Shown here one piece after another: positions 14,840-51,034 of a stretch of 59,013 bases of DNA. Source of the stretch: an uncultured Bacilli bacterium (lineage in GTDB: Bacteria; Bacillota_I; Bacilli_A; RF39; UBA660). The number at the start of each line of letters is the position of its first letter. Within the stretch, counting starts at the first letter, position 1. The notes beneath the pieces were generated by a model that saw only the letters and a program-made list of their open reading frames with translations, did no database searches and was not told the origin of the DNA. The stretch lies in the NCBI GenBank assembly GCA_947581715.1, contig CANPVK010000001.1, forward strand, positions 1 through 59,013, read 5' to 3'. A program made the translations under genes and the position numbers.

Positions 14840-15121
14840 ATGCTTTTTCGTGTTGGAGATATTGTTACACGAAATTCTTATCAAAATGATACTTTTTTTG
14901 TGATTACCGATATTGATGGAAATGTTGCCTATTTAAAGGGAATTAATTTAAGACTTTTTGCGGATAGTGATTTATCAGATTTAGTGAAAGTCGAAAAAAA
15001 AGATGTCATTGATGATGACCGGGTTACTAGTAATTTGACAGAGCATTTAAATTTAGATCGCAATGAATATTTTTATTTGCCTGGGAAGATTCTACATATT
15101 GACGTTTTGCAATTTATGTAG
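14840..15121 (+). CDS. yabG: sporulation peptidase YabG, N-terminal fragment (gene split by the ICE insertion)
   Basis: MLFRVGDIVTRNSYQNDTFFVI...YLPGKILHID matches the YabG N-terminal region. After codon D (15101-15103) the frame reads 5 unrelated codons (VLQFM) and stops. The remainder of YabG is at 50474..51034. Confidence 0.8.
   Translation: MLFRVGDIVTRNSYQNDTFFVITDIDGNVAYLKGINLRLFADSDLSDLVKVEKKDVIDDDRVTSNLTEHLNLDRNEYFYLPGKILHIDVLQFM
15095..15110. other. predicted attL junction (chromosome / ICE left end)
   Basis: The YabG reading frame leaves homologous sequence after catattGA (GA at 15101-15102). The same GA dinucleotide is present at the right junction. Confidence 0.55.
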
Positions 15122-15181
15122 GGTAGTAACATATTTACTAAGATATCCATATAAAATATAGATTTTTTTGAATTTTTGATG

Positions 15182-15221
15182 ACAATGAAATTATCTAAAA
15201 AGTTTCATTGTTTTCTTTTTT
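15182..15221 (+). terminator. rho-independent terminator just inside the ICE left end
   Basis: acaatgaaa (15182-15190) pairs with tttcattgt (15203-15211), followed by tttctttttt. Confidence 0.65.
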
Positions 15222-15300
15222 CCCTTAAAATTAAGGAAAATTTTTGATAGATTTTTAGATGCTGATTGTCGTTATGTAATTAAAATTGTTATTATTACTT

Positions 15301-15333
15301 AGCCATCTTAATTATTTAAGGTGGCTTTTTTTA
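15301..15333 (+). terminator. second terminator-like hairpin upstream of parA
   Basis: agccatctt pairs with aaggtggct (one G-U pair), followed by ttttttt. Confidence 0.55.
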
Positions 15334-15354
15334 AGTAGAAAGGAGATGAGAAAA

Positions 15355-16179
15355 ATGAAGGAATGTAAGATAATTGCTATTGCAAATCAAAAAGGTGGAG
15401 TAGGAAAAACTACAACAACTTTTAATTTGGGAGTTGCTCTAGCAAAGCAGGGAAAAAGAGTGTTACTTGTGGACATTGACCCTCAAAGTAATTTAACAAC
15501 TTATTTAGGGTGGTATAATCAAGATGAATTGAAACTTACCTTAACAGACTTAATGAAACAGTTTATTAATGATTCACCGATTCAAACAAAAGAGGCTATA
15601 TTACATCATAAAGAAAATGTGGATTTATTACCATCAGATTTGGATTTAGCCGCCCTAGAAACAACTTTATCCTATACGATGAGTAGAGAATATTGTATTA
15701 AAAATTGTCTGGAAAGTATAAAAAGAAATTATGATTATATTTTATTAGACTGTCAGCCAAGTTTGAGTATGCTTACTATAAATGCTTTAGCTTGTGCTAA
15801 TAGTGTAATTATTCCTGTTCAAAGTCAATATTTTGCTACAAAGGGAATGACAGAGTTATTAAAAATAGTTAATAAAATAAAAAGGCAGATAAATCCTGAA
15901 TTAAAAATTGATGGAGCTTTGTTAACTTTAGTAGATAAGAGAACAAACTTAGCTAAGGAGATTGAAGAACAGATTAGAAATAATTATGGTAGTGTTTTAA
16001 AATTATTTAATACTCAAATTCCTATTGCCATTAAAACGGCTGAATCTACTTCATCAGGAAATAGTATTTTTCTTTATGATAAGAATAATAAAGTTGCAGA
16101 AGCTTATTTTTCTTTATCGAAGGAGGTGTTAGATAGTGCAAAAAAATACTCCAAAGATGCAATTACCCAAGTTAGATGA
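15355..16179 (+). CDS. parA: ParA/Soj-family partition ATPase
   Basis: Deviant Walker A motif [12 protein letters not shown]. The ATG at 15355 lies 9 nt after aggag. Confidence 0.88.
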
Positions 16180-17107
16180 TCTTTTTTTGACAGAGGAGGA
16201 GCGAAGGCAAAATAGCTTGGAGAAAGTTATTGATATTAAACTGAGTGATATTGATGATTTTCCTAAACATCCCTTTAAAGTTATTGAGAATGAAGATATG
16301 TATAATATGCGGGATAGTATTATTGAAAATGGGGTATTGGTACCAGCATTAGTTAGACCAAAGCCAAATGGAAAATATGAGATGGTGTCTGGGCATAGAA
16401 GAAAATTTGCAAGTAAATTGGCAAATAAAGAAACGATTCCTTGTATCGTTAGAGAATTGACAGATGATGAAGCAACAATTATTATGGTTGATAGTAATTT
16501 ACAGAGAGAAAAAGTACTCCCAAGTGAAAAAGCTTTTGCTTATAAAATGAAATTAGAAGCATTAAAGAGACAGGGATTTAGGACAGATTTAACTTCTGTG
16601 CAACTTGAACAGAAGTTAAAAAATAAAACCTCACGAAAAAAAATAGCAGAAGATATGAATGAAAGTGAGGCAACTATTCAAAGATATATTAGATTAACAA
16701 ATCTTATACCAGAACTTTTAGAAATGGTAGATAATGATGTAATGGGATTAACTCCTAGTATCGGACTTACTCCAAGTGTTAAGATATCGTTTTTAACACA
16801 GGAGGAGCAATATTTTTTGTTGGATTATATTGAGTGTAATGAAGTTACTCCATCTTTATCTCAAGCAATTGATTTAAAAGAGTTAAGTGAAAAGCACGAA
16901 CTAGATTCTGATAAGATTCAAGAAATTTTATCTGTAAGAAAACCAAATCAAATTCCAAAAATTTCATTCCATGAAGAAAAGATTATTAGTTTACTCCCAA
17001 AAAATATTGAATACGATCAAATTGAAGATTATGTAGTCAAGTGCATGAAATTTTATTCGAGATATTTGAAGCAAAAGGAAAAAAGTGCTAAAATGGATGC
17101 AAGATGA
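16136..17107 (+). CDS. parB: ParB/Spo0J-like nuclease-domain partition protein
   Basis: ParB N-terminal domain pattern VPALVRP...[16 protein letters not shown]. The GTG start follows aggagg and overlaps the end of parA. Confidence 0.8.
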
Positions 17108-17950: not shown

Positions 17951-20900
17951 ATGAAAAAAAATATAATATTATCATTTTTAATTATGATGTTAGGAATTTT
18001 AAATGTTTTGTATTTACCAAAAGTAAATGCTGAAACATTTAATGGACAATTAATTGATGGCGAAAAAATACCAGGAATGTATGTTGTAAAGCTTAAACCA
18101 GATGGCTCTGGTAAGTATAAATTAGCTAGTTTTATTCGAAAAAGTACGGATAATAGCTTTGTTTATTGTTTACAAGCTTTTGTAGATATTAACAATAACT
18201 ACACTTATAATGTTACTCATGAAGATTACGAGACGGTATTAAAAATGACACCTGAGCAATGGAAAAGAGTTAGTTTATTGGCATATTATGGTTATCAATA
18301 TGGAAATCATACTGATCCTAAATGGTATTATATAACACAAGTAATGATATGGAGAGTTACTGATCCAACAGCAAATATTTACTTCACTAAAACTTTAAAT
18401 GGACCACGAGATGATACATTATATGCCAGCCAGATTGCAGAGTTAGAGCAATTAGTTGCAAACCATTACACAGTACCAAATTTTGATGATACTAACTTGC
18501 AAATGACTATTGGAGAGTTTAAAACTTTAACTGATTCTAATAATGTGTTAAGTAAGTTTAAAATTAATAATCAGCAAAATGTATCTGCTGAGATATCGGG
18601 AAATCATTTGAATATAACTGCAGCTGGGATTGGTGATTTGTCTTTGACTTTGATAAATACAGATGCTAAATATACAACCCCACCACTAGTATATTTTTCT
18701 GATAATAGTCAAAATGCAATGGAAGTAGGTAGCTATGATCCGATTTCTATTTCTCTTCATGGAAATATAGTGGGTGGTAAGATAAAGATAACAAAAGTTG
18801 ATAGTGAAAATAATAGTACTACACCACAAGGATTAGCTTCTTTAGTTGGTGCAAGGTACAATGTGTTAAATTCTAGGGGCGATGTAGTTACCACTTTAAC
18901 TATTGGCGAAGATGGAACCGCTGAAACAGATTATTTACCTAAAGACACTTATACTATTCAAGAAATTTCTTCTAGTACAGGATATTATTTAGATAATACA
19001 ATTTATACTGCTGTAGTAGATTCTAGTGAAGTTGTGAATGTAACTGTTAAAGAAAATGTTATTAAGGGAAAAATAAAGATAAAGAAAATTGATACTGAAA
19101 ATAAAAGTTGTAGCCCTCAAGGAAAATCTAGTTTAGCAGGTGCAAAATTTCAAGTTTTAAATTCTAAAAATGAAATCGTAGATACTCTTGTGATTGGTGA
19201 TGATTGTACTGCAACTTCAAAAGAACTTCCATATGATAATTATACTGTTCAAGAAACTGAATCAGGAACAGGGTATTTTATCAATAATAGCGTATTTCAA
19301 GTGAATTTATCTGATAATAGTACTCAAGAAATAACTGTAGAAAATAAAGTTATTAAGGGAAAAATAAAGATAAAAAAAATTGATAATGAAAATAAAAGTT
19401 GTAGTCCTCAAGGAAAATCTAGTCTAGTGGGTGCAAAATTCCAAGTTTTAAATTCTAAAAGTGAAGTTGTAGATACCCTTGTAATTGGTGATGATTGTAC
19501 TGCCACTTCAAAGGAACTTCCATATGATAATTATACTGTTCAAGAAACTGAATCAGGAACAGGATATAAGCTTAATAATAATATTTTTCCAGTTGATATA
19601 TTAGAAGATAATACTCAGGAAATAACTGTGGAAAATGAAGTTATTAAGGGGAAAATAAAGATAACAAAAGTTGATAGCAAGACGAAGATTTGTAGTCCTC
19701 AGGGAGAGGCACTTTTAAAAGGAGCAAGGTATCAAATTATAAATTCTCATGATGATATAGTTGATACTTTAACTATTGGTGATGATTGCACTGCGACCTC
19801 TCAATTGCTTCCATTTGATGATTATAAAATAAAAGAGATATCTTCTAGTACTGGATATTATCTTAATACAAAAATTTATTCTTCTTCCATTATAGAAGAG
19901 GTAGAGTATCCTGTTACAGTAGTTGAAGATGTCATTGAAAATAAGTTTCAATTTTATAAATTTTATGGAAATGCTAATACGGGTATTATTTACACCGAGG
20001 CAAATGCAGAATTTGATATTTTAAATTTTAAAGGCGAAATTGTAGCTCATTTTAAAACTGATAAAGATGGATTTGCTGATGTAACACTACCTTATGGGCA
20101 TTATACAGTAAAACAAACAAAAGGATTAGAACAATATAAACTTGTTGCACCATTTACTATTACTGTTGATGAAAATACATCACTTACACAAAATAGTTAT
20201 ATCAAAAATGGGGAGATTACAGCTAGACTAAAGTTAGTTAAGATTGATAGTAAAACGAAAGAAGTTATCCCAGTAAAGGGAGTAAAATTTAAAATTAAAA
20301 ATAAAGACACAAATCAATATGTTTGTTTAGTAACAGATAAAAATATTTGTGAATTTGAAACGAATGAACAAGGTGTTATGATTACACCATTACCATTATA
20401 TGGGGGAAACTATGAAATTGAAGAAATAAAAGCTCCATATGGTTATTTGCTATCATCTGAAACAAAAGAATTTTCTATTCGAGAAAATAGTGAGATTGTG
20501 GAAGATGAAATATTTGGATCATTAGTAATTGTTGAATTTGAGGATGAAGAGGTAGTTGGAAAGCTAGAAATTAAAAAGAACGGTGAAAAAGTTATAATTG
20601 AAGATGGCAAATTCTTATATGAGGATATACCATTACCAAATGTTACTTTTGGATTATATGATGAGAAAGGTAACTTAGTTGGTGAATATATGACAGATGA
20701 AAATGGATATTTAAAAGTTGAAGATTTAAAACTTGGAAAATATACATTTAAAGAACTTAAAACAGTTGATGGTTATGTAATAGATGAAAACGTATATGAA
20801 TTTGAATTAAAGTATAAGGATCAATATACACCTATCGTTAAAAAGAATTTTGAATTAAAAAATTATCTCAAAAAATCCAATTTAGAATTTACAAAATCTG

Positions 20901-21532
20901 ATGTTTCTACTGGACAAGGAATTCCAAATACAAGAATCGAAATTTATACAGAAAATGATGAGCTAATATTTTCTGGAGTTACTGATGAAAACGGTAAGAT
21001 AGTAATTGAAGATTTATTCGTTGGAAAATTCTATATCATTGAAACTGAAGCTGCAACAGGTTATCGTTTAAGTGATGAAAAAGTATTTTTTGAGATTAAG
21101 GAAGATGGCAAAGTTGTAAAAGCTGGAATGACAAATACAAAAATTAAAGGAAAACTGGAATTTACAAAAACAGATTTTTCTACTTCCGAACCACTTCCTA
21201 ATACATTAATTGAAATATATAATGAAGAAACCAATGAATTAGTTTTTTCTGGAAGAACGGATGAAAATGGTAAAATTACTATTGAACTTGAATATGGTAA
21301 TTATTATATTTTAGAAAAGGAAGCTCCTGAAAATTATACATTGAATGAAGAAAAAATGTATTTTTCAATTAAAGAAGATGGAGAAATTGTAAAAGCTACT
21401 ATGCAAGATAAAATTATAGTAAATGTTCCTGATACTGACATGACCGATTTTCATTTTTTAGAGATAGGTAGTTGTTTATTAATTTTTACTGGAACTGGAG
21501 TAATTTTGTATGAAAAGAAAAAGAAAAATTAA
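17951..21532 (+). CDS. surface adhesin: N-terminal thioester domain plus multiple Cna-B/SpaA-like fold repeats and a C-terminal sorting signal
   Basis: Signal peptide. Thioester-domain motifs YCLQ (Cys) and ITQVMIW (TQxxIW, Gln). At least 8 Ig-like repeats, e.g. LEFTKSD...PNTRIEIY...TDENGKI. C-terminus is NVPDTD, a hydrophobic segment, then EKKKKN. Confidence 0.8.
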   Translation: MKKNIILSFLIMMLGILNVLYLPKVNAETFNGQLIDGEKIPGMYVVKLKPDGSGKYKLASFIRKSTDNSFVYCLQAFVDINNNYTYNVTHEDYETVLKMTPEQWKRVSLLAYYGYQYGNHTDPKWYYITQVMIWRVTDPTANIYFTKTLNGPRDDTLYASQIAELEQLVANHYTVPNFDDTNLQMTIGEFKTLTDSNNVLSKFKINNQQNVSAEISGNHLNITAAGIGDLSLTLINTDAKYTTPPLVYFSDNSQNAMEVGSYDPISISLHGNIVGGKIKITKVDSENNSTTPQGLASLVGARYNVLNSRGDVVTTLTIGEDGTAETDYLPKDTYTIQEISSSTGYYLDNTIYTAVVDSSEVVNVTVKENVIKGKIKIKKIDTENKSCSPQGKSSLAGAKFQVLNSKNEIVDTLVIGDDCTATSKELPYDNYTVQETESGTGYFINNSVFQVNLSDNSTQEITVENKVIKGKIKIKKIDNENKSCSPQGKSSLVGAKFQVLNSKSEVVDTLVIGDDCTATSKELPYDNYTVQETESGTGYKLNNNIFPVDILEDNTQEITVENEVIKGKIKITKVDSKTKICSPQGEALLKGARYQIINSHDDIVDTLTIGDDCTATSQLLPFDDYKIKEISSSTGYYLNTKIYSSSIIEEVEYPVTVVEDVIENKFQFYKFYGNANTGIIYTEANAEFDILNFKGEIVAHFKTDKDGFADVTLPYGHYTVKQTKGLEQYKLVAPFTITVDENTSLTQNSYIKNGEITARLKLVKIDSKTKEVIPVKGVKFKIKNKDTNQYVCLVTDKNICEFETNEQGVMITPLPLYGGNYEIEEIKAPYGYLLSSETKEFSIRENSEIVEDEIFGSLVIVEFEDEEVVGKLEIKKNGEKVIIEDGKFLYEDIPLPNVTFGLYDEKGNLVGEYMTDENGYLKVEDLKLGKYTFKELKTVDGYVIDENVYEFELKYKDQYTPIVKKNFELKNYLKKSNLEFTKSDVSTGQGIPNTRIEIYTENDELIFSGVTDENGKIVIEDLFVGKFYIIETEAATGYRLSDEKVFFEIKEDGKVVKAGMTNTKIKGKLEFTKTDFSTSEPLPNTLIEIYNEETNELVFSGRTDENGKITIELEYGNYYILEKEAPENYTLNEEKMYFSIKEDGEIVKATMQDKIIVNVPDTDMTDFHFLEIGSCLLIFTGTGVILYEKKKKN
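18770..19933 (+). repeat. four tandem 291-bp (97-aa) modules within the adhesin gene
   Basis: Units start at 18770, 19061, 19352 and 19643, each beginning (I/V)(K/G)GKIKI(T/K)K(I/V)D. Units 2 and 3 are roughly five-sixths identical at the protein level by eye, and long stretches are identical at the DNA level. Confidence 0.85.
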
Positions 21533-22175
21533 GGTTAAGAGTCAATATTTTATTGGCTCTTTCCTGATATTTTTAGGAATTGTATTAATTGCTAGTAAAT
21601 ATATTTCTTCTTATTATATGATTCATCAAGAAACTCAAAAAATAGAAAATTTTTTATTAGAACAAGCAACATCTGTAGAGCTAATAGATGAAAAGTTAGA
21701 TATTCCAGAGGAAGATTCTGTCAAACATGAAGAAATTAAAAATGACAATGACAGAAGTGAAGATTATTTAGCTATTATTGAAATTCCTAAGATTGCTTTA
21801 AGAAAAGGTTTGTACTCCAAATTCTCTAAAAATAATAATGTTAATAAAAATATTGAGATTTTAGAAGATTCTAATTATCCTGATTATGAAAAAGGAAATT
21901 TTATTTTAATTGCACATGCTGGTAACAGTAATATTTCTTATTTTCAAAATATTAATCAATTAGAACTACAAAATCAAATTAATATTTATTATAATCATGA
22001 AAAATATATTTATGCTGTAGTTGATAAATATGAAGTTGATAAAACAGGTAAGGTTGAAATCAAGAAAAATCCAAATGCTACAAGTTTGACTTTAATTAGT
22101 TGTAAGCATAATACCGATAAACAAATCGTTGTAATTTGTAATTTGATAGGAAAGGAGAAATTTTATGGAATATAA
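21510..22175 (+). CDS. sortase (dedicated to the upstream adhesin)
   Basis: N-terminal TM segment, His in LIAHAGN, catalytic Cys in SLTLISCKH (TLxTC-like). Overlaps the adhesin stop codon. Confidence 0.8.
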   Translation: MKRKRKIKVKSQYFIGSFLIFLGIVLIASKYISSYYMIHQETQKIENFLLEQATSVELIDEKLDIPEEDSVKHEEIKNDNDRSEDYLAIIEIPKIALRKGLYSKFSKNNNVNKNIEILEDSNYPDYEKGNFILIAHAGNSNISYFQNINQLELQNQINIYYNHEKYIYAVVDKYEVDKTGKVEIKKNPNATSLTLISCKHNTDKQIVVICNLIGKEKFYGI

Positions 22176-22461: not shown

Positions 22462-22812
22462 ATGTTAAATCAAGTTGTTTTAGTAGGTAGAGTTGTCAAG
22501 GAGGTAGAATTAAAAGAAACGGAAAATGCAAAGAAATATAGCTTCATTACACTAGCTGTTCCGAGAAGTTATAAGAATATGAATGGGAGATATGATACTG
22601 ACTTTATTGAATGTATGCTTTGGGATAATGTTGCTAAAAATGTGGCAGAATATTGCAAGAAAGGTGATATTATTGGAGTTAAAGGAAGATTAGAGGTATA
22701 TCAAAAAGAAGAAAATGATAAAAAAATATCCCAACTTCATTTAGTAGCTGATAAGGTAACTTTTTTATCGCAAAAAAGAGAAGATAATGAGCATGAAGTA
22801 GATGAAAGATAA
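22462..22812 (+). CDS. ssb: single-stranded DNA-binding protein
   Basis: OB-fold N-terminus MLNQVVLVGRVVKEVELKET...FIECMLWDNVAKNVAEYCKKGDIIGVKGRLE. The short acidic tail lacks the canonical DDLPF tip. Confidence 0.85.
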   Translation: MLNQVVLVGRVVKEVELKETENAKKYSFITLAVPRSYKNMNGRYDTDFIECMLWDNVAKNVAEYCKKGDIIGVKGRLEVYQKEENDKKISQLHLVADKVTFLSQKREDNEHEVDER

Positions 22813-22929
22813 GTAAATATTTGCACATTTGCATTATTTCATTATTTTTAATATCCTCTTTTTGAAGGAGGGATATATATTAAAAGTAAGAATTTAGAAT
22901 CGTTTTATACTTCTTATCATAATGAATTT

Positions 22930-23223
22930 ATGGACTATTTAGATTGTATTATTTGTAAGTTGGAATCTGTTAATAAAAACTATAAATTCATTTTAGATCA
23001 GATTGAGGAGTTATTAAATAAACATCCTAATTTGCGATGTGTTCTAGATGATGAAGAAATAACTAATTTGAATGATAAAGATATTGCTGCATTAATAAAA
23101 ATTAAAAACTTATATCAAAAACAAATAGAAATAGAGTATGAAGAATTATTTTTTATTGGCGGTAGAAATGTTTATTATTATTTTAAAAAATTAGGAATTT
23201 TGAATGAAAATGTGGATAATTAA
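22930..23223 (+). CDS. hypothetical protein
   Basis: 97-aa ORF followed by a terminator. Weak RBS. Confidence 0.4.
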   Translation: MDYLDCIICKLESVNKNYKFILDQIEELLNKHPNLRCVLDDEEITNLNDKDIAALIKIKNLYQKQIEIEYEELFFIGGRNVYYYFKKLGILNENVDN

Positions 23224-23250
23224 GGAAAATTTTGAAGTAGATTGTTGATT

Positions 23251-23278
23251 AAGAGTGAATTCGAAGTTCACTCTTTTT
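23251..23278 (+). terminator. rho-independent terminator
   Basis: aagagtgaa pairs with ttcactctt, followed by ttt. Confidence 0.6.
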
Positions 23279-23303
23279 CTATATCTAAGAAAGTAGGTGC
23301 ATT

Positions 23304-24257
23304 ATGGCTTATTATAATTCAGAAGTGATAGAACAGGTTAGACAATTGGATGTATATTCTTATTTATTAAATTATGAGCCTGATGAATTAGTAAAAGTTA
23401 GCAGAGATACCTATTGTACTAAAAGTCATGATAGCTTAAAAATATCAAATGGTATGTGGTATTGGTTTTCTAGAGGAATTGGAGGAAAAAGTGCAATAGA
23501 TTATTTGATTGCTGTAAAAGATTTTTCTTTTATACAAGCAGTCGAAACTATTTTAAATTACATGAAAAAAGTTCCCATAAAGACTTGCGGTGTTATCAAA
23601 AAAAAGGAAGAATCCTCCAAATTAATTCTACCTGAAAGAAATCAAAATAATGATAAAGTAATTCGTTATTTAATTGATAGAGGAATTGATAAAGATATTA
23701 TTTTAGAGTGTATTGATAAAGGTTATATTTATGAAGATCAAAAACATAATGTAATTTTTATAGGTTATGATTATCAAAATAATCCAAGATATGCGATGTG
23801 TCGAGCGACTAATTCTAGCAGATTTATGAATGATGTATATGGAAGCCACAAAGCATTTTCTTTTCGATTAAATTCTTTGGAACCTAATTGCTCTGTTCAT
23901 CTATTTGAGAGTGCTATTGATCTTTTGTCATATGCTACATTATTAAAATTAAATCATCGGGAATGGTATAATTATAATCTTTTATCACTAGCTGGTGTTT
24001 ATCAACCTTCTGCTAAAATGGAAGATAGTAAAATACCATTAGCCTTAAATTATTTTTTAAATCAAAATCCAAATATTAAGAAAATATATCTTCATTTGGA
24101 TAACGATCAAGCAGGAAGAACAGCTTCTTTAACATTAAAAACTGTACTTCCTAAATGTTATGAAATCATTGACAATCCTGTTCCTGTTGGAAAAGATGTT
24201 AATGATTTTTTATGCAGAAAAATAGATAAAATGAATCACAAAGAAAAGGAGAGATAG
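23304..24257 (+). CDS. DUF3991 plus Toprim domain protein (primase/topoisomerase-like conjugation protein)
   Basis: N-terminal pattern typical of DUF3991 (…SLKISNGMWYWFSRGIGGKSAIDYLI…) and a C-terminal Toprim-like acidic cluster (HLFESAIDLLS…HLDNDQAGR). Confidence 0.7.
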   Translation: MAYYNSEVIEQVRQLDVYSYLLNYEPDELVKVSRDTYCTKSHDSLKISNGMWYWFSRGIGGKSAIDYLIAVKDFSFIQAVETILNYMKKVPIKTCGVIKKKEESSKLILPERNQNNDKVIRYLIDRGIDKDIILECIDKGYIYEDQKHNVIFIGYDYQNNPRYAMCRATNSSRFMNDVYGSHKAFSFRLNSLEPNCSVHLFESAIDLLSYATLLKLNHREWYNYNLLSLAGVYQPSAKMEDSKIPLALNYFLNQNPNIKKIYLHLDNDQAGRTASLTLKTVLPKCYEIIDNPVPVGKDVNDFLCRKIDKMNHKEKER

Positions 24258-41826: not shown

Positions 41827-42282
41827 AAAATAAATTTTAGTATAAGTATATTCATTTTAATATTTATTCTTCTAATTTCTGGTTGTAGTTCAAGTAAGAA
41901 AGAATATCAATCTATTTCTACATTTTCGATATATTCTCCTGAGAATAATGGAATTAATGAATCCGAAATAAAAATACAAGAAGATTATTCTGATAAAATA
42001 ATGGAAGTATATGCTTCAAAAGAAATACGTGAATATATTTCAGAGTATTATACAAATCTTTATGGATACGAAAAAAGAGATATCAATCTTAAAGTAAAAA
42101 GCATTGATAATAAAAATACAATTTATCAAATTGATTTTGATTGTGATAGTTTGGAAGAAGATGATTGTATTTTAGCTAGTGCAAAATTTAATAGTCAGGT
42201 ATTATCACAACTTGAGATATCTGAAAAATTATATATTGATCTTATTAATACAGTATATCAAAATAAAGAGAAAAAAAATTAG
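41824..42282 (+). CDS. lipoprotein
   Basis: MKINFSISIFILIFILLISGCSS has a lipobox (LISGC). The ATG at 41824 is the conserved end of the repeat. Confidence 0.65.
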   Translation: MKINFSISIFILIFILLISGCSSSKKEYQSISTFSIYSPENNGINESEIKIQEDYSDKIMEVYASKEIREYISEYYTNLYGYEKRDINLKVKSIDNKNTIYQIDFDCDSLEEDDCILASAKFNSQVLSQLEISEKLYIDLINTVYQNKEKKN

Positions 42283-42496
42283 TAACAACTTGATTTAGTT
42301 ATTGGTTTTTATTAGATATGATTATACTAAAAGTTTCAATAAGTTTAAATATTGTTATTCAAATTTTAATTTTTTATTTTCTCCAATCGATATATTTATT
42401 ATTTTATTTATTATTAAAAATTCAAAAAAAAGATATATTGAAATTTTGACATTAACACAAAATCAAGAATAGTTATCAATTATTGAAAAGTTTGGA

Positions 42497-42805
42497 ATGC
42501 ATAGGAGAAGATATGATTTTGAGGGTTTTGCAAATAACAATAATTTATATACACAATATTTATTTACTGGTGTAACTGAAGTTAGGGTTAAATTACATGC
42601 TACTAAATATAAACCTTTAAATGCTGAATTATGGCAAAGAAAAACTGGATTATTCCAATCAGATGTTAAAGTAGCTACTTTTAATACTGTGGAAGTAGGA
42701 TATTCTACTGAAACTACATTGTTTGGATTAGACTCTAAGGCTAATTATTATATTAAATTTATTGCTCCAGCATATTTTACAGGTTGGATTGAATCAAATA
42801 ATTAA
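42497..42805 (+). CDS. hypothetical protein (possibly a truncated remnant)
   Basis: 102-aa ORF with no signal peptide and a weak RBS, preceded by about 210 nt of very AT-rich DNA and followed by a terminator. Confidence 0.35.
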   Translation: MHRRRYDFEGFANNNNLYTQYLFTGVTEVRVKLHATKYKPLNAELWQRKTGLFQSDVKVATFNTVEVGYSTETTLFGLDSKANYYIKFIAPAYFTGWIESNN

Positions 42806-42842
42806 TTTAGCAATTTTTGAAATATAATAAACTGTTAAAGTC

Positions 42843-42874
42843 AGGGGATTCTTATTGGTATCCCCTACTTTTTA
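42843..42874 (+). terminator. rho-independent terminator
   Basis: aggggat pairs with atcccct, followed by actttttac. Confidence 0.55.
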
Positions 42875-42902
42875 CATTTATTAAAATAAACGAGGTAAAA
42901 TA

Positions 42903-44204
42903 ATGAAAAAAATTTTTATTGTAAATATATTAATTGGAAGTCTTGGGATTATTCTTTACTTAATTTTGACTTTTTTTGTTCCTTTAGAGTTGGGAACTGG
43001 TCATAAAGAATTAGAAAATATCATTTTACTAGCTATGCCTTGTTTTCTCATTTTTATTCTATCATTTACTTTAAATGAGGAAAGAGATAGAAGAAGATGT
43101 TTAAATTTTTACTTAGTTAGTTATTTTATAGTTATGCTTGGATTTGTATTTTCTAATAATCGCTATAGTGAATTAATCTTTCAAGGAATTATGCCACGAG
43201 AATATAATTTAATTCCATTTCATTCCATAATCGAATTACTAAAATCTCCATTAGGATTTAGGTTTGCTTTTTATAATATTATTGGGAATTTTTTTATGTT
43301 GACACCTCTTTCAATTTTACTTCCAATGATTAATCAAAAATTTAAAAAAACAAAAGTATTTTTTCTTAGTATCATTAGTTTATGTTTTTTTATAGAAAGT
43401 GTACAATATATTACAGGATTAGGAAGTTTTGATATTGATGATTTTATTTTAAATATAAGTGGAGCTATGTTAATATATATTTTTATAAAATTATCAATCA
43501 TTTTTAGTTTTTTAGAACAGTTTTTTTTGAAAAAGAAATTTTCTAATACTATATGTGTTATTCTTTATAGTATATTGTTAATTATATTTATTCTTGTTTG
43601 TATTAGAAGAATTGTTTTTTTAGTAAATGATTATTATGCAAACGAAATAGATTTATCTGATTTGAAGTGTCAAACTGAAGAAAAGACTTATTTAGGTGAT
43701 GTTGGGAATTATCATTATTATAGTAAGTGTGATTATGGAACTACTTATATTACTGTAGGCAATCAAAAGTATAAAATGGAAGATTTTATTCATTCTAGGT
43801 ATTTAGAAGATTATATAAATCAACTACAATTAGAAAAAGAAGAAATTGTAACCAATGTATTTTTAGAGAAAAAAAATTCTAATAAAACTCTTTTATATTA
43901 TGACAGTGAACTTGATAAAAATTATTATTTGTATGGATATCAAAAAATTTATATTGAAAAAGATGGTCAAGTTTATAATTTAAAAGAAATGATTAATCAA
44001 GATGAACTTAATATTGGTTCTGTTCTCTCTTTAGCAGAATTAAAATATATAAATCCAAATCAAGAATATAGTATTAGTTCTGGAAAATATTATCAAATAT
44101 TAAGTTGTTCTAGCCGTTGGAGTTTTAGTGGCGATGTTTATATTTTGGATTTAGATTTTGAAATAACAGAAAATAGTTGTAGTTTACTTGAGAGGAATGA
44201 GTAA
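42903..44204 (+). CDS. VanZ-like membrane domain fused to a C-terminal domain of about 200 aa
   Basis: VanZ pattern NLIPFHSI...NIIGNFFMLTPLSILLP...ESVQYITGLGSFDIDDFILNISGAMLIY, an extra TM segment, then a soluble Cys-containing domain. Confidence 0.65.
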   Translation: MKKIFIVNILIGSLGIILYLILTFFVPLELGTGHKELENIILLAMPCFLIFILSFTLNEERDRRRCLNFYLVSYFIVMLGFVFSNNRYSELIFQGIMPREYNLIPFHSIIELLKSPLGFRFAFYNIIGNFFMLTPLSILLPMINQKFKKTKVFFLSIISLCFFIESVQYITGLGSFDIDDFILNISGAMLIYIFIKLSIIFSFLEQFFLKKKFSNTICVILYSILLIIFILVCIRRIVFLVNDYYANEIDLSDLKCQTEEKTYLGDVGNYHYYSKCDYGTTYITVGNQKYKMEDFIHSRYLEDYINQLQLEKEEIVTNVFLEKKNSNKTLLYYDSELDKNYYLYGYQKIYIEKDGQVYNLKEMINQDELNIGSVLSLAELKYINPNQEYSISSGKYYQILSCSSRWSFSGDVYILDLDFEITENSCSLLERNE

Positions 44205-45370: not shown

Positions 45371-45408
45371 CCTCCAATCAATTTAAAAAAATTTAGATTG
45401 ATTGGAGG
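45371..45408 (+). promoter_or_regulatory. SD-sequestering hairpin upstream of the sigma-like gene
   Basis: cctccaatcaat (45371-45382) pairs perfectly with attgattggagg (45397-45408). The 3' arm contains the GGAGG located 8 nt before the ATG at 45417. Confidence 0.5.
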
Positions 45409-45416
45409 AAAGAAAA

Positions 45417-45893
45417 ATGGAATATTATCCAAAAAGAAGAAAAGATTTTAATAATCCTTATACCTTAAGTTATTGTGAAAAGAGTAATACTTATATTATT
45501 TCGTTTAAAGATAGTAGAGGAATTCAACAAGTCATAGAAGTTAATAAACAAATTTATCAAGCATTTAATAAATTTGAATTAGAAGATATTTCTCAAATGA
45601 ATAAATTTGATAGACATATTGAGCATTCTGAGTTGTTTGAAGAATCTCTGCATAAAAGAGCTGTGGACAAGCCATTATCAGTAGAGGAAATAGTAGAAAG
45701 TAAAATTAATAACGAAAAATTAAGAGAAGCAATACAAGAACTACCTGAAATCCAAAAAAATAGATTAAAAAAATATTATTTTGATAATATGAGTTTTGAG
45801 GAAATTGCTAAAGAAGAACATTGTACCAAAAGAGCAGTAAAATTTAGTGTTGATCTTGCTTTAGAAAAAATTTCAAAAAAATTTCAAAAATAG
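45417..45893 (+). CDS. sigma-70 region 4-type HTH regulator (conjugative-element sigma-like factor)
   Basis: C-terminal LPEIQKNRLKKYYFDNMSFEEIAKEEHCTKRAVKFSVDLALEKI is a sigma70_r4-type HTH. The ATG at 45417 is preferred to the TTG at 45402. Confidence 0.6.
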   Translation: MEYYPKRRKDFNNPYTLSYCEKSNTYIISFKDSRGIQQVIEVNKQIYQAFNKFELEDISQMNKFDRHIEHSELFEESLHKRAVDKPLSVEEIVESKINNEKLREAIQELPEIQKNRLKKYYFDNMSFEEIAKEEHCTKRAVKFSVDLALEKISKKFQK

Positions 45894-45918
45894 ACTACAC
45901 ATTTTGACTTTTAGTGAG

Positions 45919-45955
45919 GAAACAAGTGAAAGGGGATAAACCTTTCACTTGTTTC
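45919..45955 (+). terminator. 15-bp perfect stem-loop after the sigma-like gene (no T-run)
   Basis: gaaacaagtgaaagg, loop ggataaa, cctttcacttgtttc. Confidence 0.4.
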
Positions 45956-46112
45956 AATTTGAAATAAGTAAGTTCTTTGAAATTGTATATATCATTCATC
46001 AAATACATTCCTATTAAGAATAGCACATTAACAAGTACGCTTGTCGATAAATACTTGGTTATAAAATTAGGTAACACCTAATCTGCGATTACTCTTAATA
46101 GAATTAAAGATA

Positions 46113-46215
46113 CTCCTGTCTAGCCACAGACTCAAGCAATGGGGACAGCCCGGAGAGATCCTCGGGGAGGTGGAATTCCTGTGAGATTGAATCGTACTCA
46201 ATCGTTTGATGAAAT
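46113..46215. other. GC-rich island in an ORF-less spacer (candidate structured RNA or gene relic)
   Basis: The sequence cctgtctagccacagactcaagcaatggggacagcccggagagatcctcggggaggtggaattcctgtgag stands out from the AT-rich surroundings. No ORF with a start codon and RBS on either strand. Confidence 0.3.
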
Positions 46216-46262
46216 CCTAAGCTGAAGGTATTAAGAAAAATATCAGTAATGAACTAAAATTT

Positions 46263-46286
46263 AGCTATAGTTGAGAAACTATAGCT
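46263..46286 (+). promoter_or_regulatory. 10-bp perfect hairpin immediately upstream of the mazF-like RBS
   Basis: agctatagtt, loop gaga, aactatagct. The RBS aaagga follows about 10 nt later. Confidence 0.4.
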
Positions 46287-46309
46287 TACTTAAGAAAGGA
46301 ATAAAATAA

Positions 46310-46678
46310 ATGTTTTGTGAAATATATCGTGGGCAAATTTACTATGCAAATCTTGATCCTATCATAGGAAGTGAACAAAGTGGATTTCGTCCTGTTTTAA
46401 TTCTACAAAATGACATAGGAAATCTATATAGTGAGACGATTTTAGTGGCACCTATTACTAGTAGGGTAGCTACTAAAAATAAATTGCCAACACATGTTAA
46501 AATTCATGCCTTTGATAAATTACAAAAAGATTCTATTATCTTAACAGAGCATATTCGTTCTATCGATAAACAAAGGTTAGAAATTTATTTAGGAAAACTA
46601 AATGAAATAGAAATGAAAAAAGTAGATGCTGCAATTGAAGTAGCATTTGGATTGAGGAGGAGTGTTTATGAGAAATAA
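46310..46678 (+). CDS. PemK/MazF-family endoribonuclease toxin
   Basis: YRGQIYYANLDPIIGSEQSGFRPVLILQND...ILVAPITSR...PTHV...DSIILTEHIRSIDKQRL is the classical MazF/PemK fold signature. Confidence 0.85.
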   Translation: MFCEIYRGQIYYANLDPIIGSEQSGFRPVLILQNDIGNLYSETILVAPITSRVATKNKLPTHVKIHAFDKLQKDSIILTEHIRSIDKQRLEIYLGKLNEIEMKKVDAAIEVAFGLRRSVYEK

Positions 46679-46895
46679 ACTTTTTACTGTAGATATTGAA
46701 TTAATTAATAGTAATCAAATAATCGTAAATGCAAAAAGCGAAAGGGAAGCAAAAGAAAAAGTTATGGATATTATTCAAAATAGTAATTTTTTAGAAAATA
46801 ATATTATATCTTCTAATCCGTATAAAGTGAATTTAGTTACAAGAAGACTTAAGAAAAAAAATAATTCAGTTTTTTTGTCGGGAATAAAAAAATAG
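46668..46895 (+). CDS. DpnD/PcfM-like small protein (candidate cognate partner of the toxin)
   Basis: The ATG at 46668 lies 7 nt after gaggagg and overlaps the toxin stop by 11 nt. FTVDIELINSNQIIVNAKSEREAKEKVMDIIQNS resembles the DpnD/PcfM motif and the middle of ORF 24323..24892. Confidence 0.55.
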   Translation: MRNKLFTVDIELINSNQIIVNAKSEREAKEKVMDIIQNSNFLENNIISSNPYKVNLVTRRLKKKNNSVFLSGIKK

Positions 46896-46925
46896 TAGCG
46901 TTCATAGGGTAAAGTGGGAGGAAAT

Positions 46926-47057
46926 ATGGTAATTAATAAAAAAGAAGAACATGTAATATGTGTTTTTGATGAAGAAGGAATTACTTTGGAACAAAAAATA
47001 TTAGAAGCATTTGATTACTATTTAAATGCAAATCTGCAAAATTCAAAAGATATGTGA
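46926..47057 (+). CDS. small ORF (43 aa), hypothetical
   Basis: My own translation: MVINKKEEHVICVFDEEGITLEQKILEAFDYYLNANLQNSKDM. RBS gggagg is upstream. The stop is embedded in a terminator hairpin. Confidence 0.35.
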   Translation: MVINKKEEHVICVFDEEGITLEQKILEAFDYYLNANLQNSKDM

Positions 47058-47076
47058 TTTTGCAGATTCGTTTTTA
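47031..47076 (+). terminator. rho-independent terminator upstream of the recombinase genes
   Basis: aatctgcaaaat (47031-47042) pairs with attttgcagatt (47057-47068), followed by cgtttttatt. Confidence 0.7.
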
Positions 47077-47119: not shown

Positions 47120-48709
47120 ATGATAGATTGTTTAAATGATAAAAAACATCATGCTGCTGCTTATGGCAGATTATCGAAGGAAAATTTATTAAAAGGAAAT
47201 GCTAGCGAAAGTATTTTAAATCAAAAAGCCTTGATACAAGAATATGCTAATAAAAATGGTATAGAAATATATGATTACTATATGGATGATGGTTTTACTG
47301 GAAGTAATTTTGATAGACCAGAATTTAAGAGAATGTTAAGGGATATTGAGAATGGTGTAATTGATATTGTTATTACAAAGGATATATCTAGATTAGGGAG
47401 AGATTTTATTGGAACTTCTGATTATATTTATAATTACTTTCCAGAGCATAAAGTTAGGTATATCTCAATCTTAGAAAATTACGATTCTTTAAAGCCAAAT
47501 GGTGTGGAAGATATACTTCCATATCATACTTTATTAAATCATTCTTATTTAAAAGATACATCTAAAAAAATTAAGAGTGTTAGGCATGAAAAAATGGCAA
47601 GAGGTCTTTATGTTGGTAGTAGTGTTCCATATGGCTATAAAAGATCAGAAGAAGATAATCGCAAATTTGTAATAGATGAGTATGCTGCTAATATTGTTAA
47701 GAGAATTTTTAAAATGAAGTATGAAGGAATAACTAATGTTATGATTGCTCGTACTTTGACTAATGAAGGAGTTTTACCACCTAGTGTATATTCTAATAAA
47801 AATATAGAAGTTACATATACTACTAATCTTTGGAAACCTTCTACTATCGCAAATATTCTAGGAAATGAAGTTTATATAGGTACATTAACTCAAGGCAAGT
47901 ATCAAAGAATTAATACACGTTCTAAAAGATGTTTTTTATTGCCAAAAGATCAATGGATTATTGTAAAAAACAATCATGAACCTATTATTGATGAAGAATT
48001 ATTTCATCATATTAATTCTCAAAAAACTCATAATGAACAAATTCGAATGGTAAAATATGATTATTTACTAAAAGGGTTAGTAGTTTGTGCTGATTGTGGA
48101 AAAACGATGTTAGTTCGACCATGTAAAGGAAAGCCTATATATTGTTGTAAGACTTATGCTAGATATAGAAATAATGTATGTAGCATGCATTACTTTAGGG
48201 AAGATAAATTAAATAAGATTGTTTTAAAGGAAGTAAGAAATGTTCTTAAGTCATTTCATCAAGAAAAATCATTGAGTGAAAAATATGATAATCAGAAAAA
48301 AAAGCAAACTCTTATTCCTAATTATGAACTTGATTTAAAGCAAAATAAAAGTAGGCTAAAATTAATAGAAAAAGCTCTCAGCGATTTATATATTGATAGA
48401 ACTTCTGAAATTATTACAATAGATGAATTTCAAAAGTTAAAAAATGATTTGACAAAAGAAAAGGAGAAATTAATTCTGAGAATTTCAGATTTAGAATTAA
48501 TGATTGGAAAGGGAAAAATAAAATTAGGTTCTGGTAATGAAAAGGAAAAAGTTATTTCAGATTTTTTAAAGATGAAAAATCCAGATAAATTTGTATTAAA
48601 TCAGTTAATCAAGAGAATAGAAATTGATGAGCAAAAAAATGTAAAAATTTACTTTAACTTTAATATTAATGGAGTGGCTTATGAAAAAGAAAAAAGTATT
48701 GTATGCTAG
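47120..48709 (+). CDS. large serine recombinase 1
   Basis: N-terminal resolvase catalytic domain (AAAYGRLSKE, catalytic Ser; DDGFTGSNFDRPEF; VITKDISRLGRD), recombinase domain, Zn-ribbon (CADCG...CC...C) and C-terminal coiled coil. 529 aa. Confidence 0.9.
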   Translation: MIDCLNDKKHHAAAYGRLSKENLLKGNASESILNQKALIQEYANKNGIEIYDYYMDDGFTGSNFDRPEFKRMLRDIENGVIDIVITKDISRLGRDFIGTSDYIYNYFPEHKVRYISILENYDSLKPNGVEDILPYHTLLNHSYLKDTSKKIKSVRHEKMARGLYVGSSVPYGYKRSEEDNRKFVIDEYAANIVKRIFKMKYEGITNVMIARTLTNEGVLPPSVYSNKNIEVTYTTNLWKPSTIANILGNEVYIGTLTQGKYQRINTRSKRCFLLPKDQWIIVKNNHEPIIDEELFHHINSQKTHNEQIRMVKYDYLLKGLVVCADCGKTMLVRPCKGKPIYCCKTYARYRNNVCSMHYFREDKLNKIVLKEVRNVLKSFHQEKSLSEKYDNQKKKQTLIPNYELDLKQNKSRLKLIEKALSDLYIDRTSEIITIDEFQKLKNDLTKEKEKLILRISDLELMIGKGKIKLGSGNEKEKVISDFLKMKNPDKFVLNQLIKRIEIDEQKNVKIYFNFNINGVAYEKEKSIVC

Positions 48710-50240
48710 ATTATCGTTGGAAGATTGGGAAAAACAGAATGAATACTCTGAAAGTATTGAAAATCAAATAGACTTAATAAAAGCATATTGTCAAAAGGAA
48801 AACATTATTTTATCTGATACCTATATAGATGATGGTTATTCTGGTGGTAATTTTGATAGACCTGGTTTTTTAAGATTAAAACAAGATATTGAGGATGGAT
48901 TAATTGATACTGTAATAACAAAAGATTTTTCTAGATTAGGGCGAAATTTTTTAGAATTATCTCATTATATATTAGAGTTTTTTCCAGATCATGATATTCG
49001 CTATATCGCTATTAATGATAATTATGATAGTGCAAGTGATAATTCTGCCTTAGATGATTTTTATATTGGTATTAATGCAATTAGAAATCAAAAATATATT
49101 CAAGATATTTCTAGAAAGGTTAAAAGTGTAAAAGAGTTAAAATCTAAGCAGAAAAATTTTTTAAGTTTTACAGCTCCATATGGCTATAAGATTATTAAAA
49201 AAGATGGCGTAAGAACTTTAGAAATTGACGAAGAAGCTGCAAAAATTGTTCGGAGAATTTTTCAATCTATTGCAGATGGAAAGTCTAGAAAACAGGTTGC
49301 ACAGGAATTAAATCAAGAAAATGTTGAACCTCCAATATTACATTTGAAAATGACTCAAAGTAGTAAGGTAAATTATCATTTTGATTGGTATCCATCGGGA
49401 ATATTTAGAATTATTAGGGACATTGTTTATACAGGAAATCTTTTCTATAGAAAATCTATTAAAGAAAACTGTTTAGAAAAGAAAAGGAAACTTATTAGAA
49501 CATCAGATAGACAAATTATTTTTGATACACATCCGGCAATTATTGATATGGAATTGTTTGAAAAAGCAAATAAAACTTTGAAAACGATGAATTCGAGAAG
49601 AGTGTATAACTATCATAGTATTTTTGAAGATTTAATTTATTGTGGAGAATGTGGCAATTTAATGAAAATAAGTGGTCGTGTTAGAGAAAATGGTGCATTT
49701 CAATATCGGTTTATTTGTAATAAGACTATTAATAGGAAAAGTTGTGACAATAGATCAATTGCTGATTCGAAGTTAAAAGAAATTGTTTCTTATACTTTAA
49801 AAAAAATTATTACTGAGTTTATTCAAGAAGAAAACATTATTGAACAATCGGTAAAAAAAATTCATAATCAAAAAGATTATGAAATAAAAATCGACAAACT
49901 ACAAAAAGATATTCAAGTTTTGGATGCTCAAGTTAGTGATTTATATTTAAAGAAGACAAATGGACAAGTTACTTTAGTAGAATTTTTAAAAAACAAAAAT
50001 GATATTGAAGAAAAAAAGAATTCGATGACAGAACAGTTAAAAGCTTTAGAATTAGGAAAGAAGAATGTAATTCAAAGAGATGTTATTTTAGAAAAATATA
50101 GAGACTTTATTGATAATGATGAATTCTTAGAAAATTCAGTACATGATTTAATAGAAAAAATATTTATATATAAGGATAACACTATAAAAATTAATTTTAA
50201 AATTCAAAAATTAGATTCTGAAATCATTCACTTATATTAG
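48681..50240 (+). CDS. large serine recombinase 2
   Basis: VLYARLSLED, DDGYSGGNFDRPGF, VITKDFSRLGRN, a Zn-ribbon CGECG...C...C and a coiled coil. The ATG at 48681 follows ggag and overlaps the end of recombinase 1. Confidence 0.9.
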   Translation: MKKKKVLYARLSLEDWEKQNEYSESIENQIDLIKAYCQKENIILSDTYIDDGYSGGNFDRPGFLRLKQDIEDGLIDTVITKDFSRLGRNFLELSHYILEFFPDHDIRYIAINDNYDSASDNSALDDFYIGINAIRNQKYIQDISRKVKSVKELKSKQKNFLSFTAPYGYKIIKKDGVRTLEIDEEAAKIVRRIFQSIADGKSRKQVAQELNQENVEPPILHLKMTQSSKVNYHFDWYPSGIFRIIRDIVYTGNLFYRKSIKENCLEKKRKLIRTSDRQIIFDTHPAIIDMELFEKANKTLKTMNSRRVYNYHSIFEDLIYCGECGNLMKISGRVRENGAFQYRFICNKTINRKSCDNRSIADSKLKEIVSYTLKKIITEFIQEENIIEQSVKKIHNQKDYEIKIDKLQKDIQVLDAQVSDLYLKKTNGQVTLVEFLKNKNDIEEKKNSMTEQLKALELGKKNVIQRDVILEKYRDFIDNDEFLENSVHDLIEKIFIYKDNTIKINFKIQKLDSEIIHLY

Positions 50241-50280
50241 GAAAAAAGTAATATTTTAAATTAAGAATGGAGGAGATAGC

Positions 50281-50484
50281 TTGAATAGGGCAATTATTTA
50301 TGTAAGATTATCAAAAGCAGAAGAAAATAGTATAAATAAGAAAAAACCAAATTTTGAATCAGATAAATATTTTGTATCAAAGCTAAGACCAATCGGTAAT
50401 AGAAATAATTTTCAAAGGGACTTTATCAAAAAATTACAGCAATCAAAAAAATATAGAATAAAGGAGGAGGACTATGTTAGGTAA
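50281..50484 (+). CDS. 67-aa ORF whose first 13 residues mimic a serine-recombinase catalytic motif (truncated third recombinase or small accessory protein)
   Basis: The TTG start lies 6 nt after ggagga. MNRAIIYVRLSKAEE resembles the YxRxS motif of the two upstream recombinases. The remaining sequence is basic and unrelated. Confidence 0.4.
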   Translation: MNRAIIYVRLSKAEENSINKKKPNFESDKYFVSKLRPIGNRNNFQRDFIKKLQQSKKYRIKEEDYVR

Positions 50485-51034
50485 TTTTTTTGTTACACAA
50501 AAACAGTCGGCAGATGGTGATGATGATTATTTAAGTAGATGTATGAATTTTTATAAAAAATTAAATTTAATGGCTTACGGTTTGTGTTTAAAAGAAGAAG
50601 ATATTAAATCAGAAATAGAAATATATTTAAAAAAATTAAATCCTGATATTGTTGTGATTACTGGTCACGATGCTTATTATCGTAGGAAGGGTAGTCAAGA
50701 TAATATTCAAAATTATAAAAATACAAATCATTTTATTGATGCAGTAAAAGTAGCTCGTAATTTTGAAAAAAATCAGGATAAATTAATTATTATTGCTGGT
50801 GCTTGTCAAAGTGATTATGAAGAATTAATTAAGGCAGGTTCTACTTTTGCTTCTAGTCCCAAACGGATTAATATTCATGCTCTAGATCCTGCTATCATTG
50901 CTTCATATTTAGCTTTATATGATCGCAATAAAACGGTTGATTTATTAGATGTTCTTGCGAAAACAAAATCTGGGGCAGATGGTATTGGTGGAGTTATGAC
51001 AAAAGGTTGTATGTTTGTGGGGTATCCAAGATGA
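50474..51034 (+). CDS. yabG: sporulation peptidase YabG, C-terminal catalytic fragment (restarts inside the ICE right end)
   Basis: …GDDDYLSRCMNFYKK…PDIVVITGHDAYY…IIIAGACQSDYEELIKAGSTFASSPKRINIHALDP… matches the peptidase U57 (YabG) core. The first 13 codons and the SD aaggaggagg are element-derived. Confidence 0.8.
   Translation: MLGNFFVTQKQSADGDDDYLSRCMNFYKKLNLMAYGLCLKEEDIKSEIEIYLKKLNPDIVVITGHDAYYRRKGSQDNIQNYKNTNHFIDAVKVARNFEKNQDKLIIIAGACQSDYEELIKAGSTFASSPKRINIHALDPAIIASYLALYDRNKTVDLLDVLAKTKSGADGIGGVMTKGCMFVGYPR
50507..50522. other. predicted attR junction (ICE right end / chromosome)
   Basis: YabG homology resumes at GA|tggtgatgatgat (GA at 50513-50514). Confidence 0.55.

Follow-up and report, generated by a model that had tools for sequence, protein, structure and literature searches.

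We analyzed a 59,013-nt stretch of DNA from an uncultured Bacilli bacterium (assembly GCA_947581715.1, contig CANPVK010000001.1; hereafter the window), in which the gene for the sporulation protease YabG is split by a 35,412-bp insert with the gene content of an integrated conjugative element (ICE). The features at the split gene are:

14813..14820, + strand: -10 box of the yabG promoter, mother-cell type (CATATATT), recognized from the box in relatives and PMC3789822
14840..15102, + strand: 5′ part of yabG (codons 1–87 plus 2 nt of codon 88), placed by profile match, alignment and blastn end
15101..15102, no strand: GA crossover dinucleotide of attL, the 2-bp overlap of left and right homology and sole attL/attR identity
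15103..50514, + strand: the ICE, 35,412 bp with one GA copy (GC 26.7% versus 28–30% in the flanks)
50513..50514, no strand: GA crossover dinucleotide of attR, placed by blastn ends in relatives and by comparison of attL with attR
50515..51034, + strand: 3′ part of yabG (last base of codon 88 to stop), with the catalytic region ITGHDAY...AGACQS

The open reading frame (ORF) at 14840..15121 encodes the YabG N-terminus through ...YLPGKILHID, then reads VLQFM and stops; the remaining YabG is encoded by the ORF at 50474..51034. Joining base 15102 to base 50515 gave an in-frame ORF of 783 nt, or 260 amino acids (aa). This rebuilt YabG matched the Pfam profile Peptidase_U57 from end to end (positions 2–280 of 280, E = 1.9e-90) and exceeded the cut-off of the NCBIfam equivalog TIGR02855 (282.6 versus 270.4 bits). 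In an alignment with 10 intact homologues, the junction FYLPGKILHID|GDEDYL fell ungapped within the most conserved N-terminal motif. A preliminary description of the locus had claimed a clean join of 15102 to 50515, with no extra residues called for between HID and GDD, and both points were borne out.

The same description had proposed a search for an uninterrupted yabG in relatives. We scanned 185,579 species genomes and took the best 80 loci; in 80/80 the gene was uninterrupted, with query residues 1–3 to 259–260 covered. The best of them (L001, 95% identity), from a rabbit-gut metagenome-assembled genome (MAG) labelled 'uncultured Bacilli', is element-free. Against the 10 closest element-free loci, blastn homology broke at the predicted bases: on the left it stopped at 15102 in all 10, and on the right it resumed at 50513 (7/10) or 50512 (3/10). 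These empty sites map the ends of the ICE to the base and leave an insert of the length given above, flanked by a 2-bp duplication of GA, the dinucleotide pointed out earlier at both junctions. Otherwise attL and attR share no sequence. The predicted attB reads ...AAGATTCTACATATTGATGGTGATGATGATTAT..., and the predicted attP reads ...AAAAACAGTCGGCAGACGTTTTGCAATTTATG.... The attL region recurs in an independent assembly with 100% identity over 3.8 kb (L256) and in L257 with 99.7%, and the fused ORF at attR is present on one further contig.

As a structure, the junctions are proven by these comparisons, as is the reconstitution of yabG that precise excision would bring about. The sequences also indicate that the ICE is integrated by a large-serine-recombinase crossover at GA, with attB inside the FYLPGKILHID|GD motif. 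GA is non-palindromic and the sole overlap of attL and attR, which fits a 2-bp crossover dinucleotide; cleavage at this point is predicted from sequence. Tn5397/TndX uses a GA core.

A CATAnnnT box (mostly gCATATAAT) lies 20–29 nt 5′ of the yabG start in ∼70 of the 78 relatives listed. CATATAAT and CATATTAT are canonical mother-cell -10 boxes, and yabG of C. difficile is σK-dependent (PMC3789822). At the other end of the element, a start for the YabG catalytic domain is possible at attR (50461–51034 of the window). An N-terminally truncated 186-aa catalytic domain, a candidate only, could be translated from there without excision; a similar in-frame attR–yabG fusion is found in one relative (L081) and is absent from another (L083).

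All genes of the ICE lie on the + strand. They form these modules:

15286..17107, + strand: partition-like genes at the left end, ParA (AAA_31/CbiA) and ParB_N
17951..22175, + strand: 1193-aa surface adhesin (thioester domain plus nine SpaA repeats) with sortase
22462..25319, + strand: DNA-processing accessory genes, namely single-stranded DNA-binding protein, DUF6664, DUF3991-Toprim, helix-turn-helix (HTH) regulator and HU
25525..27257, + strand: NikA/MobC accessory protein and MobA/VirD2-type relaxase
29061..30875, + strand: type IV coupling protein (VirD4/TraG; T4SS-DNA_transf, E = 7e-62)
30829..36964, + strand: mating-pore genes, namely VirB2-like pilin, TrbL/VirB6-like, DUF3846, PrgI, VirB4 (778 aa) and CHAP cell-wall hydrolase
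37052..44204, + strand: cargo, namely acyltransferase_3, HTH membrane protein, secreted proteins and VanZ-like protein
45402..46895, + strand: right-end module, namely sigma70 region-4 protein, pemK RNA motif (46104–46184), PemK toxin and 77-aa ORF

The ICE also has a DUF3801 gene. The hallmark genes are uninterrupted and full length: relaxase (447 aa, match E = 4e-42), coupling protein (604 aa), VirB4, hydrolase (510 aa) and both large serine recombinases (LSRs). Among plasmid-borne proteins, the closest annotated homologues of VirB4 carry the label 'CD1110 family', the type of C. difficile CTn4 and Tn1549-like elements. Matches to VirB2-like TrbC and to TrbL were both weak, TrbL_4 falling under the Pfam cut-off, and domain annotation of the ICE ORFs recognized no VirB8/TcpC-like gene. 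No phage structural genes were found, and the 10 unassigned ICE ORFs had no structural match in PHROG. These results agree with the preliminary description, which had assigned the insert a conjugation gene set and no phage structural genes. By its gene content the insert is an intact-looking ICE of the Tn1549/CTn4 type, and it appears to be transfer-competent.

Its right end holds a compact set of features next to attR:

46882..46910, + strand: σE-type promoter candidate (GAATAAA-N14-CATAGGGT), 15 nt 5′ of the small ORF
46926..47057, + strand: 43-aa acidic ORF, candidate recombination directionality factor (RDF), the conserved small ORF before LSR1
47031..47075, + strand: terminator-like hairpin with a T-run, separating the small ORF from LSR1 (z-score -3.55, minimum free energy -16.4 kcal/mol)
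47120..48709, + strand: LSR1, large serine recombinase, 529 aa, by domain match
48669..50240, + strand: LSR2, large serine recombinase, 523-aa ORF (519 aa in the public gene call, which starts four codons later)
50281..50484, + strand: 67-aa ORF where relatives have a short third resolvase-like gene (BLASTP E = 0.12; positional analogy)
50492..50497: GTTACA of the element-side arm of attR (GTTACA ... TCGGCA), family-conserved

Two LSR genes had been reported here from the outset, and each product indeed matches three domains (Resolvase, Recombinase and Zn_ribbon_recom). LSR1 and LSR2 are paralogues with 35% identity. R14 and S16 are invariant across the LSR2 alignment, and LSR2 ends 273 bp from attR. 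Across the family, attR has a conserved element-side arm, GTTAC...TC(A/G)GCA|GA. Left arms of relatives carry inverted TAAGTAAC, and the symmetry of their attP arms is plain (GTTACTTA...TAAGTAAC). We make no claim of symmetric attP half-sites for the window ICE, whose arms are asymmetric (16 versus 23 nt from GA). The 67-aa ORF was rejected as a recognizable remnant of a third recombinase. Four relatives have a short third resolvase-domain ORF between LSR2 and attR (L083:9585-10172, L168:11574-12020, L171:3786-4259 and L172:5942-6280). In two of them, L083 and L168, Ala (YIRVANKDD) stands where the catalytic Ser is expected, and the product may be an inactive or regulatory subunit.

For comparison, we assembled relatives of LSR2. 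Apart from its own public record LSR2 has no close relative; ∼113 clusters follow at 40–48% identity, and then come matches of ≤34%. An initial metagenome scan, with LSR2 as sole query, yielded no relatives. A second, with the alignment, returned only generic LSRs of ∼30% identity and served as negative control only. The family sample consisted of five clusters (P0002, P0039, P0041, P0012 and P0097) and four IMG/VR contigs. In all loci long enough (L081–L086, L168–L170 and L172), a truncated Peptidase_U57 gene stands directly 3′ of the recombinases, followed by veg and, except in L169/L170, by spoVG, yabP and divIC. YabG homology begins at residue 88 in these loci (at residue 83 in L169). L172, the sole IMG/VR member whose contig reaches the yabG junction, has the same site. 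Distant LSR loci (∼30% identity) flanked yabG in 0/80 metagenome and 0/75 IMG/VR cases. Because every sampled homologue that reaches the junction is yabG-adjacent and none of the 155 distant loci is, the LSR cassette defines a yabG-specific family. By this comparison it is a yabG-specific recombination unit that recurs on elements of differing type.

These elements vary widely. The same cassette is found on a prophage-like element with endolysin and holin (L083) and on an element with other cargo (L168). In yabG it also forms part of a ∼14.3-kb element whose sole other gene encodes a giant (∼3,500-aa) Peptidase_M26 (IgA-protease-like)/dockerin protein. At least 24 contigs carry this M26 element (L085/L086 and L250–L255; e.g. 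L253:10262-20315 plus L085:1-9645), and they come from several gut samples. A ∼7.3-kb mini-element in yabG (L169:5385-13540, also L170) holds genes for DUF402, a GNAT acetyltransferase and an AAA_14 ATPase, together with a 34-aa ORF, a frameshifted LSR1 and an intact LSR2. L169 also retains an intact small ORF and intact yabG halves on both sides, and an 11-bp repeat (GATGGAGACAA) containing the GA core borders the mini-element at each end. A clear LSR1 frameshift is confined to L169/L170; decay of LSR1 in the M26 element was ambiguous by tblastn, its N-terminus being in frame with no canonical start codon. A search for N-terminal fragments gave 51 clusters of short YabG N-terminal proteins (75–162 aa), some merely ended by short contigs and several on long contigs.

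Directly upstream of LSR1, an acidic ORF of 34–44 aa (motif VICVYD...ILEAFE.YL) is present in 10/10 family members, and we regard the 43-aa ORF of the window as a candidate RDF. It is preceded in 10/10 members by the bipartite motif k[act]AT[atg]ww-N13-14-CATAnnnT, which was found in 4% of 707 control upstream regions. In 8/10 members the motif lies ∼8–12 nt before the ribosome-binding site; in L169 and L174 it lies further upstream. Several members have a terminator-like hairpin upstream of the motif, and LSR1 is preceded by a TATAAT-like box in several relatives. The layout of small ORF and LSR resembles that of sprB (σE/K) with sprA (σA) in SPβ (PMC6957869) and of CD1234 (σE) with CD1231 (σA) in the C. 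difficile skin element (PMC5025042).

We also searched both strands of the window with a preset pattern, [GT][AC]ATA[AT][AT]-N13-14-CATAnnnT, derived from the B. subtilis σE consensus. It gave five matches versus ∼2 expected. Three of the five are intergenic and well placed, before the small ORF (46882–46910), yabP (51652–51679, + strand) and gerQ (53276–53248, - strand). In B. subtilis, yabP and gerQ belong to the σE regulon. The strict matches before the host's own yabP and gerQ serve as internal examples of mother-cell promoters of this lineage, and the yabP promoter architecture recurs across relatives. The common -10 box of the mother-cell sigma factors and their ATA -35 element are supported by PMC3789822. 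The element's sigma70_r4 protein was considered as the factor that recognizes the conserved promoter but is an unlikely one: its gene is missing from the M26 element and the mini-elements, in which the motif persists. A host sigma factor must therefore read the promoter. The σE-like motif of all 10 members, defined with its -35 half relaxed after the data were seen, may mark a mother-cell, possibly σE-dependent, promoter for the recombinase/RDF unit.

The host flanks keep spoVT, yabG, spoVG, yabP, yabQ, divIC and gerQ, in a Bacillus-like order (pth-mfd-spoVT...metS-tatD-ksgA-yabG-veg). With its sporulation genes so arranged, the host, a low-GC member of the uncultured gut Bacilli, is probably a spore former.

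These data lead us to favor, at a probability of roughly 0.6, the reading that the window holds a yabG-interrupting ICE, integrated at GA, which carries a yabG-dedicated unit (promoter, 43-aa ORF, hairpin, LSR1 and LSR2) and would be excised in development. The LSR genes would be expressed constitutively or at a low level. The small acidic ORF would act as RDF and be transcribed in the mother cell from the σE-type promoter. Recombination of attL with attR would then remove the ICE precisely and rebuild yabG before its late (σK-type) mother-cell expression. The forespore would retain the integrated ICE, so that the element is inherited. In vegetative donors the same unit could excise the ICE for transfer, with RDF supplied by read-through of the upstream PemK operon. 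A broader proposal is that a yabG cassette of σE promoter, ∼42-aa RDF and two LSRs circulates among unrelated mobile elements of uncultured spore-forming gut Bacilli, and that the ICE is a natural conjugative intervening element, which would leave the mother-cell chromosome, stay integrated in the forespore and remain transferable from vegetative cells; to this we give even odds.

Known intervening elements provide a frame for this reading. The closest case is yin (HEQ52_18485) of C. botulinum V73 (PMC10747680). Like the window ICE, yin interrupts yabG and encodes an LSR, and its precise excision restores yabG and yields a circle. Its excision and circularization were shown by polymerase chain reaction and depend on growth phase; its authors likewise proposed a mother-cell promoter and a small RDF (PMC10747680). 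Yet yin is prophage-like, whereas the insert described here is an ICE and lacks phage structural genes. Moreover, yin has one LSR beside the 5′ half of yabG, and the window ICE has two paralogous LSRs beside the 3′ half. A 14-bp repeat is given for yin and a 2-bp GA core here. Finally, the authors of yin described it as confined to one strain, with no second insertion in yabG among the public data up to November 2023 (PMC10747680), whereas the cassette family of the window spans many gut MAGs. The preliminary description had offered the combination as one not known to it for yabG. Since another yabG element had been published in 2023, the novelty of the yabG interruption itself falls away. The literature we searched held engineered ICE-type intervening elements but no natural one, and no account of the shared cassette.

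The elements skin (in sigK; SpoIVCA, or CD1231 plus CD1234), SPβ (in spsM; SprA plus SprB) and gin (in gerE; GirC plus GirX) follow a common plan: an LSR unit sits in a mother-cell sporulation gene, a small RDF has a σE or σE/K promoter, and the recombinase is possibly constitutive. The window ICE differs in its target gene, its two LSRs and its full conjugation system, and also in that its excision is one that we infer. Skin elements share only SpoIVCA and differ in their other genes (bioRxiv 10.1101/2022.02.25.481979); the window family similarly shares its recombination unit and differs elsewhere. Suzuki et al. showed that an engineered ICEBs1 carrying the SPβ recombination unit transfers by conjugation and integrates in a sporulation gene, and that such units are interchangeable between phage and ICE (PMC6957869). 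That ICE is artificial, whereas the window ICE would be a natural counterpart, with its unit found on prophage-like and cargo-only elements as well.

On the conjugative side, Tn1549-type ICEs of streptococci can carry several co-oriented serine integrases and insert within genes with 2–8 bp repeats (PMC4701971), and C. difficile has serine-recombinase ICEs in CTn2, CTn5 and CTn7 (PMC3158075). The Tn1549/CTn4-type ICEs share with the window ICE the module type (CD1110-family VirB4, PrgI, DUF3801, DUF3846 and MobA/VirD2 relaxase), the co-oriented serine integrases at the target-gene end and the short repeat. In contrast, yabG is not among their reported targets, and the window ICE has a sporulation-type promoter and a small ORF before its integrases. 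Judged by sequence, then, the window element is a new member of these ICEs with a new target gene. With the sporulation-gene intervening elements (skin, SPβ, vfbin, vrin, gin and yin) it shares three features: a mother-cell gene is split, the element's own recombinase genes lie by the att site, and excision would restore the ORF.

Several points weigh against developmental excision. The exact rebuilt YabG was absent from a collection of 15 billion proteins, where the best full-length match was 87% identical, and the attP junction was absent from IMG/VR; mining of assembled data for attB and attP thus came back empty. The -35 half of the promoter motif was relaxed post hoc, and 3/10 members fit the strict σE consensus. 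Common descent of the 10 members makes binomial P-values too favorable, and AT-rich DNA readily gives CATA motifs (2.1 per kb). The RDF role is deduced from position, size, acidity and conservation, the model gives no reason for two LSRs, and the host is uncultured, its sporulation being read from gene content. Moreover, yabG is non-essential for sporulation in B. subtilis and C. difficile, and a permanent knockout could be tolerable. This last point, together with the att evidence missing from assembled data and the variable insertion (the closest relative, L001, lacks the element), would also suit a site-specific ICE of the ordinary kind, for which a conserved part of yabG serves as attB, which is excised on conjugation only and which costs its carriers yabG. 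The Tn1549-type ICEs with single or triple serine integrases (ConjTn1549; PMC4701971) and CTn2, CTn5 and CTn7 (PMC3158075) offer precedents. Against it stand a mother-cell-type promoter before the small ORF in 10/10 members, including elements that have no transfer genes, and reduced, non-mobile members that have kept the small ORF and whose LSR2 and yabG halves are still intact, in the manner of skin-like domesticated elements. The growth-phase-dependent excision of yin from yabG also speaks against it, and we consider it a tentative alternative, clearly the less probable one. Developmental excision is plausible because the family is recurrent and yabG-specific, its reduced non-mobile members keep LSR2 and the yabG halves intact, the promoter is conserved and the host has sporulation genes. 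The preliminary proposal of such excision has thus gained considerable indirect support, from the cassette family, the promoter, the reduced elements and the host genes; excision itself was not observed.

The ICE might instead be a decayed, immobile remnant, stuck in yabG or surviving as an intervening element that has lost its transfer capacity. About 1 kb (44205–45250) with no ORFs of ≥60 aa, the 67-aa ORF as a possible remnant, the unrecognized VirB8/TcpC-like gene and the clearly reduced elements among relatives would all be in keeping with decay. Yet the hallmark genes are uninterrupted and of full length, and the identical junction occurs in other samples, which makes this reading improbable. 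Finally, given that the assembly is of metagenome type, the split could in principle be an assembly or binning chimera. Both junctions, however, lie at GA and in frame, attL is 100% identical in independent assemblies, attR is found on another contig, and several family members have the same junction position. An artifact of this kind is hardly credible.

The intervening elements described to date are prophages or their remnants, or small non-viral islands, with a single published case in yabG. The loci described here show that interruption of yabG is recurrent in gut Bacilli and that such a sporulation-gene site can harbor an ICE that appears competent for transfer. The sharing of one cassette by an ICE, cargo islands and a prophage-like element would lend natural support to the idea of an interchangeable site-specific recombination unit. 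If mother-cell excision is true, conjugative spread would be linked to a developmental gene rearrangement, and the cassette would be a compact dual-LSR/RDF/att system of defined specificity. The interruption also marks the lineage as a likely spore former.

Other parts of the ICE yielded further observations. The pemK RNA motif (RF02913, 61.7 bits) lies upstream of the PemK/MazF toxin gene (46310–46678). The module of sigma70 region-4 protein and PemK precedes the LSRs in L083 and L168 too, where a 61–62-aa ORF takes the place of the RNA before PemK; it is probably an addiction module linked to the recombination cassette. Two copies of a 100-nt direct repeat (24244–24343 and 41745–41844, 89% identical) lie directly upstream of, and extend into, the start codons of two unrelated genes, those of the HTH regulator (24314) and a putative lipoprotein (41815). 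No Rfam family matched the repeat, which was absent from all loci retrieved; it could represent a promoter or 5′ untranslated region that was duplicated. Three tandem 291-nt repeats (19041–19913) encode SpaA-type domains of the 1193-aa thioester adhesin, and the 228-aa secreted protein that precedes the adhesin has a Thr/Pro-rich repeat (17510–17640). The ∼1-kb region at 44205–45250, which has very short ORFs only, may be decayed cargo or a regulatory region.

Taxonomic labels of the relatives are inconsistent (Bacilli, Tenericutes and Muribaculaceae; L007 is labelled 'Candidatus Scybalousia', with NCBI taxid 3082844 in Bacteroidales), and the Scybalousia taxonomy, at odds with the MAG labels, was not used. 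In the host flank, a T-box leader (RF00230, 6818–7008, 101.6 bits) precedes the gene for methionyl-tRNA synthetase.

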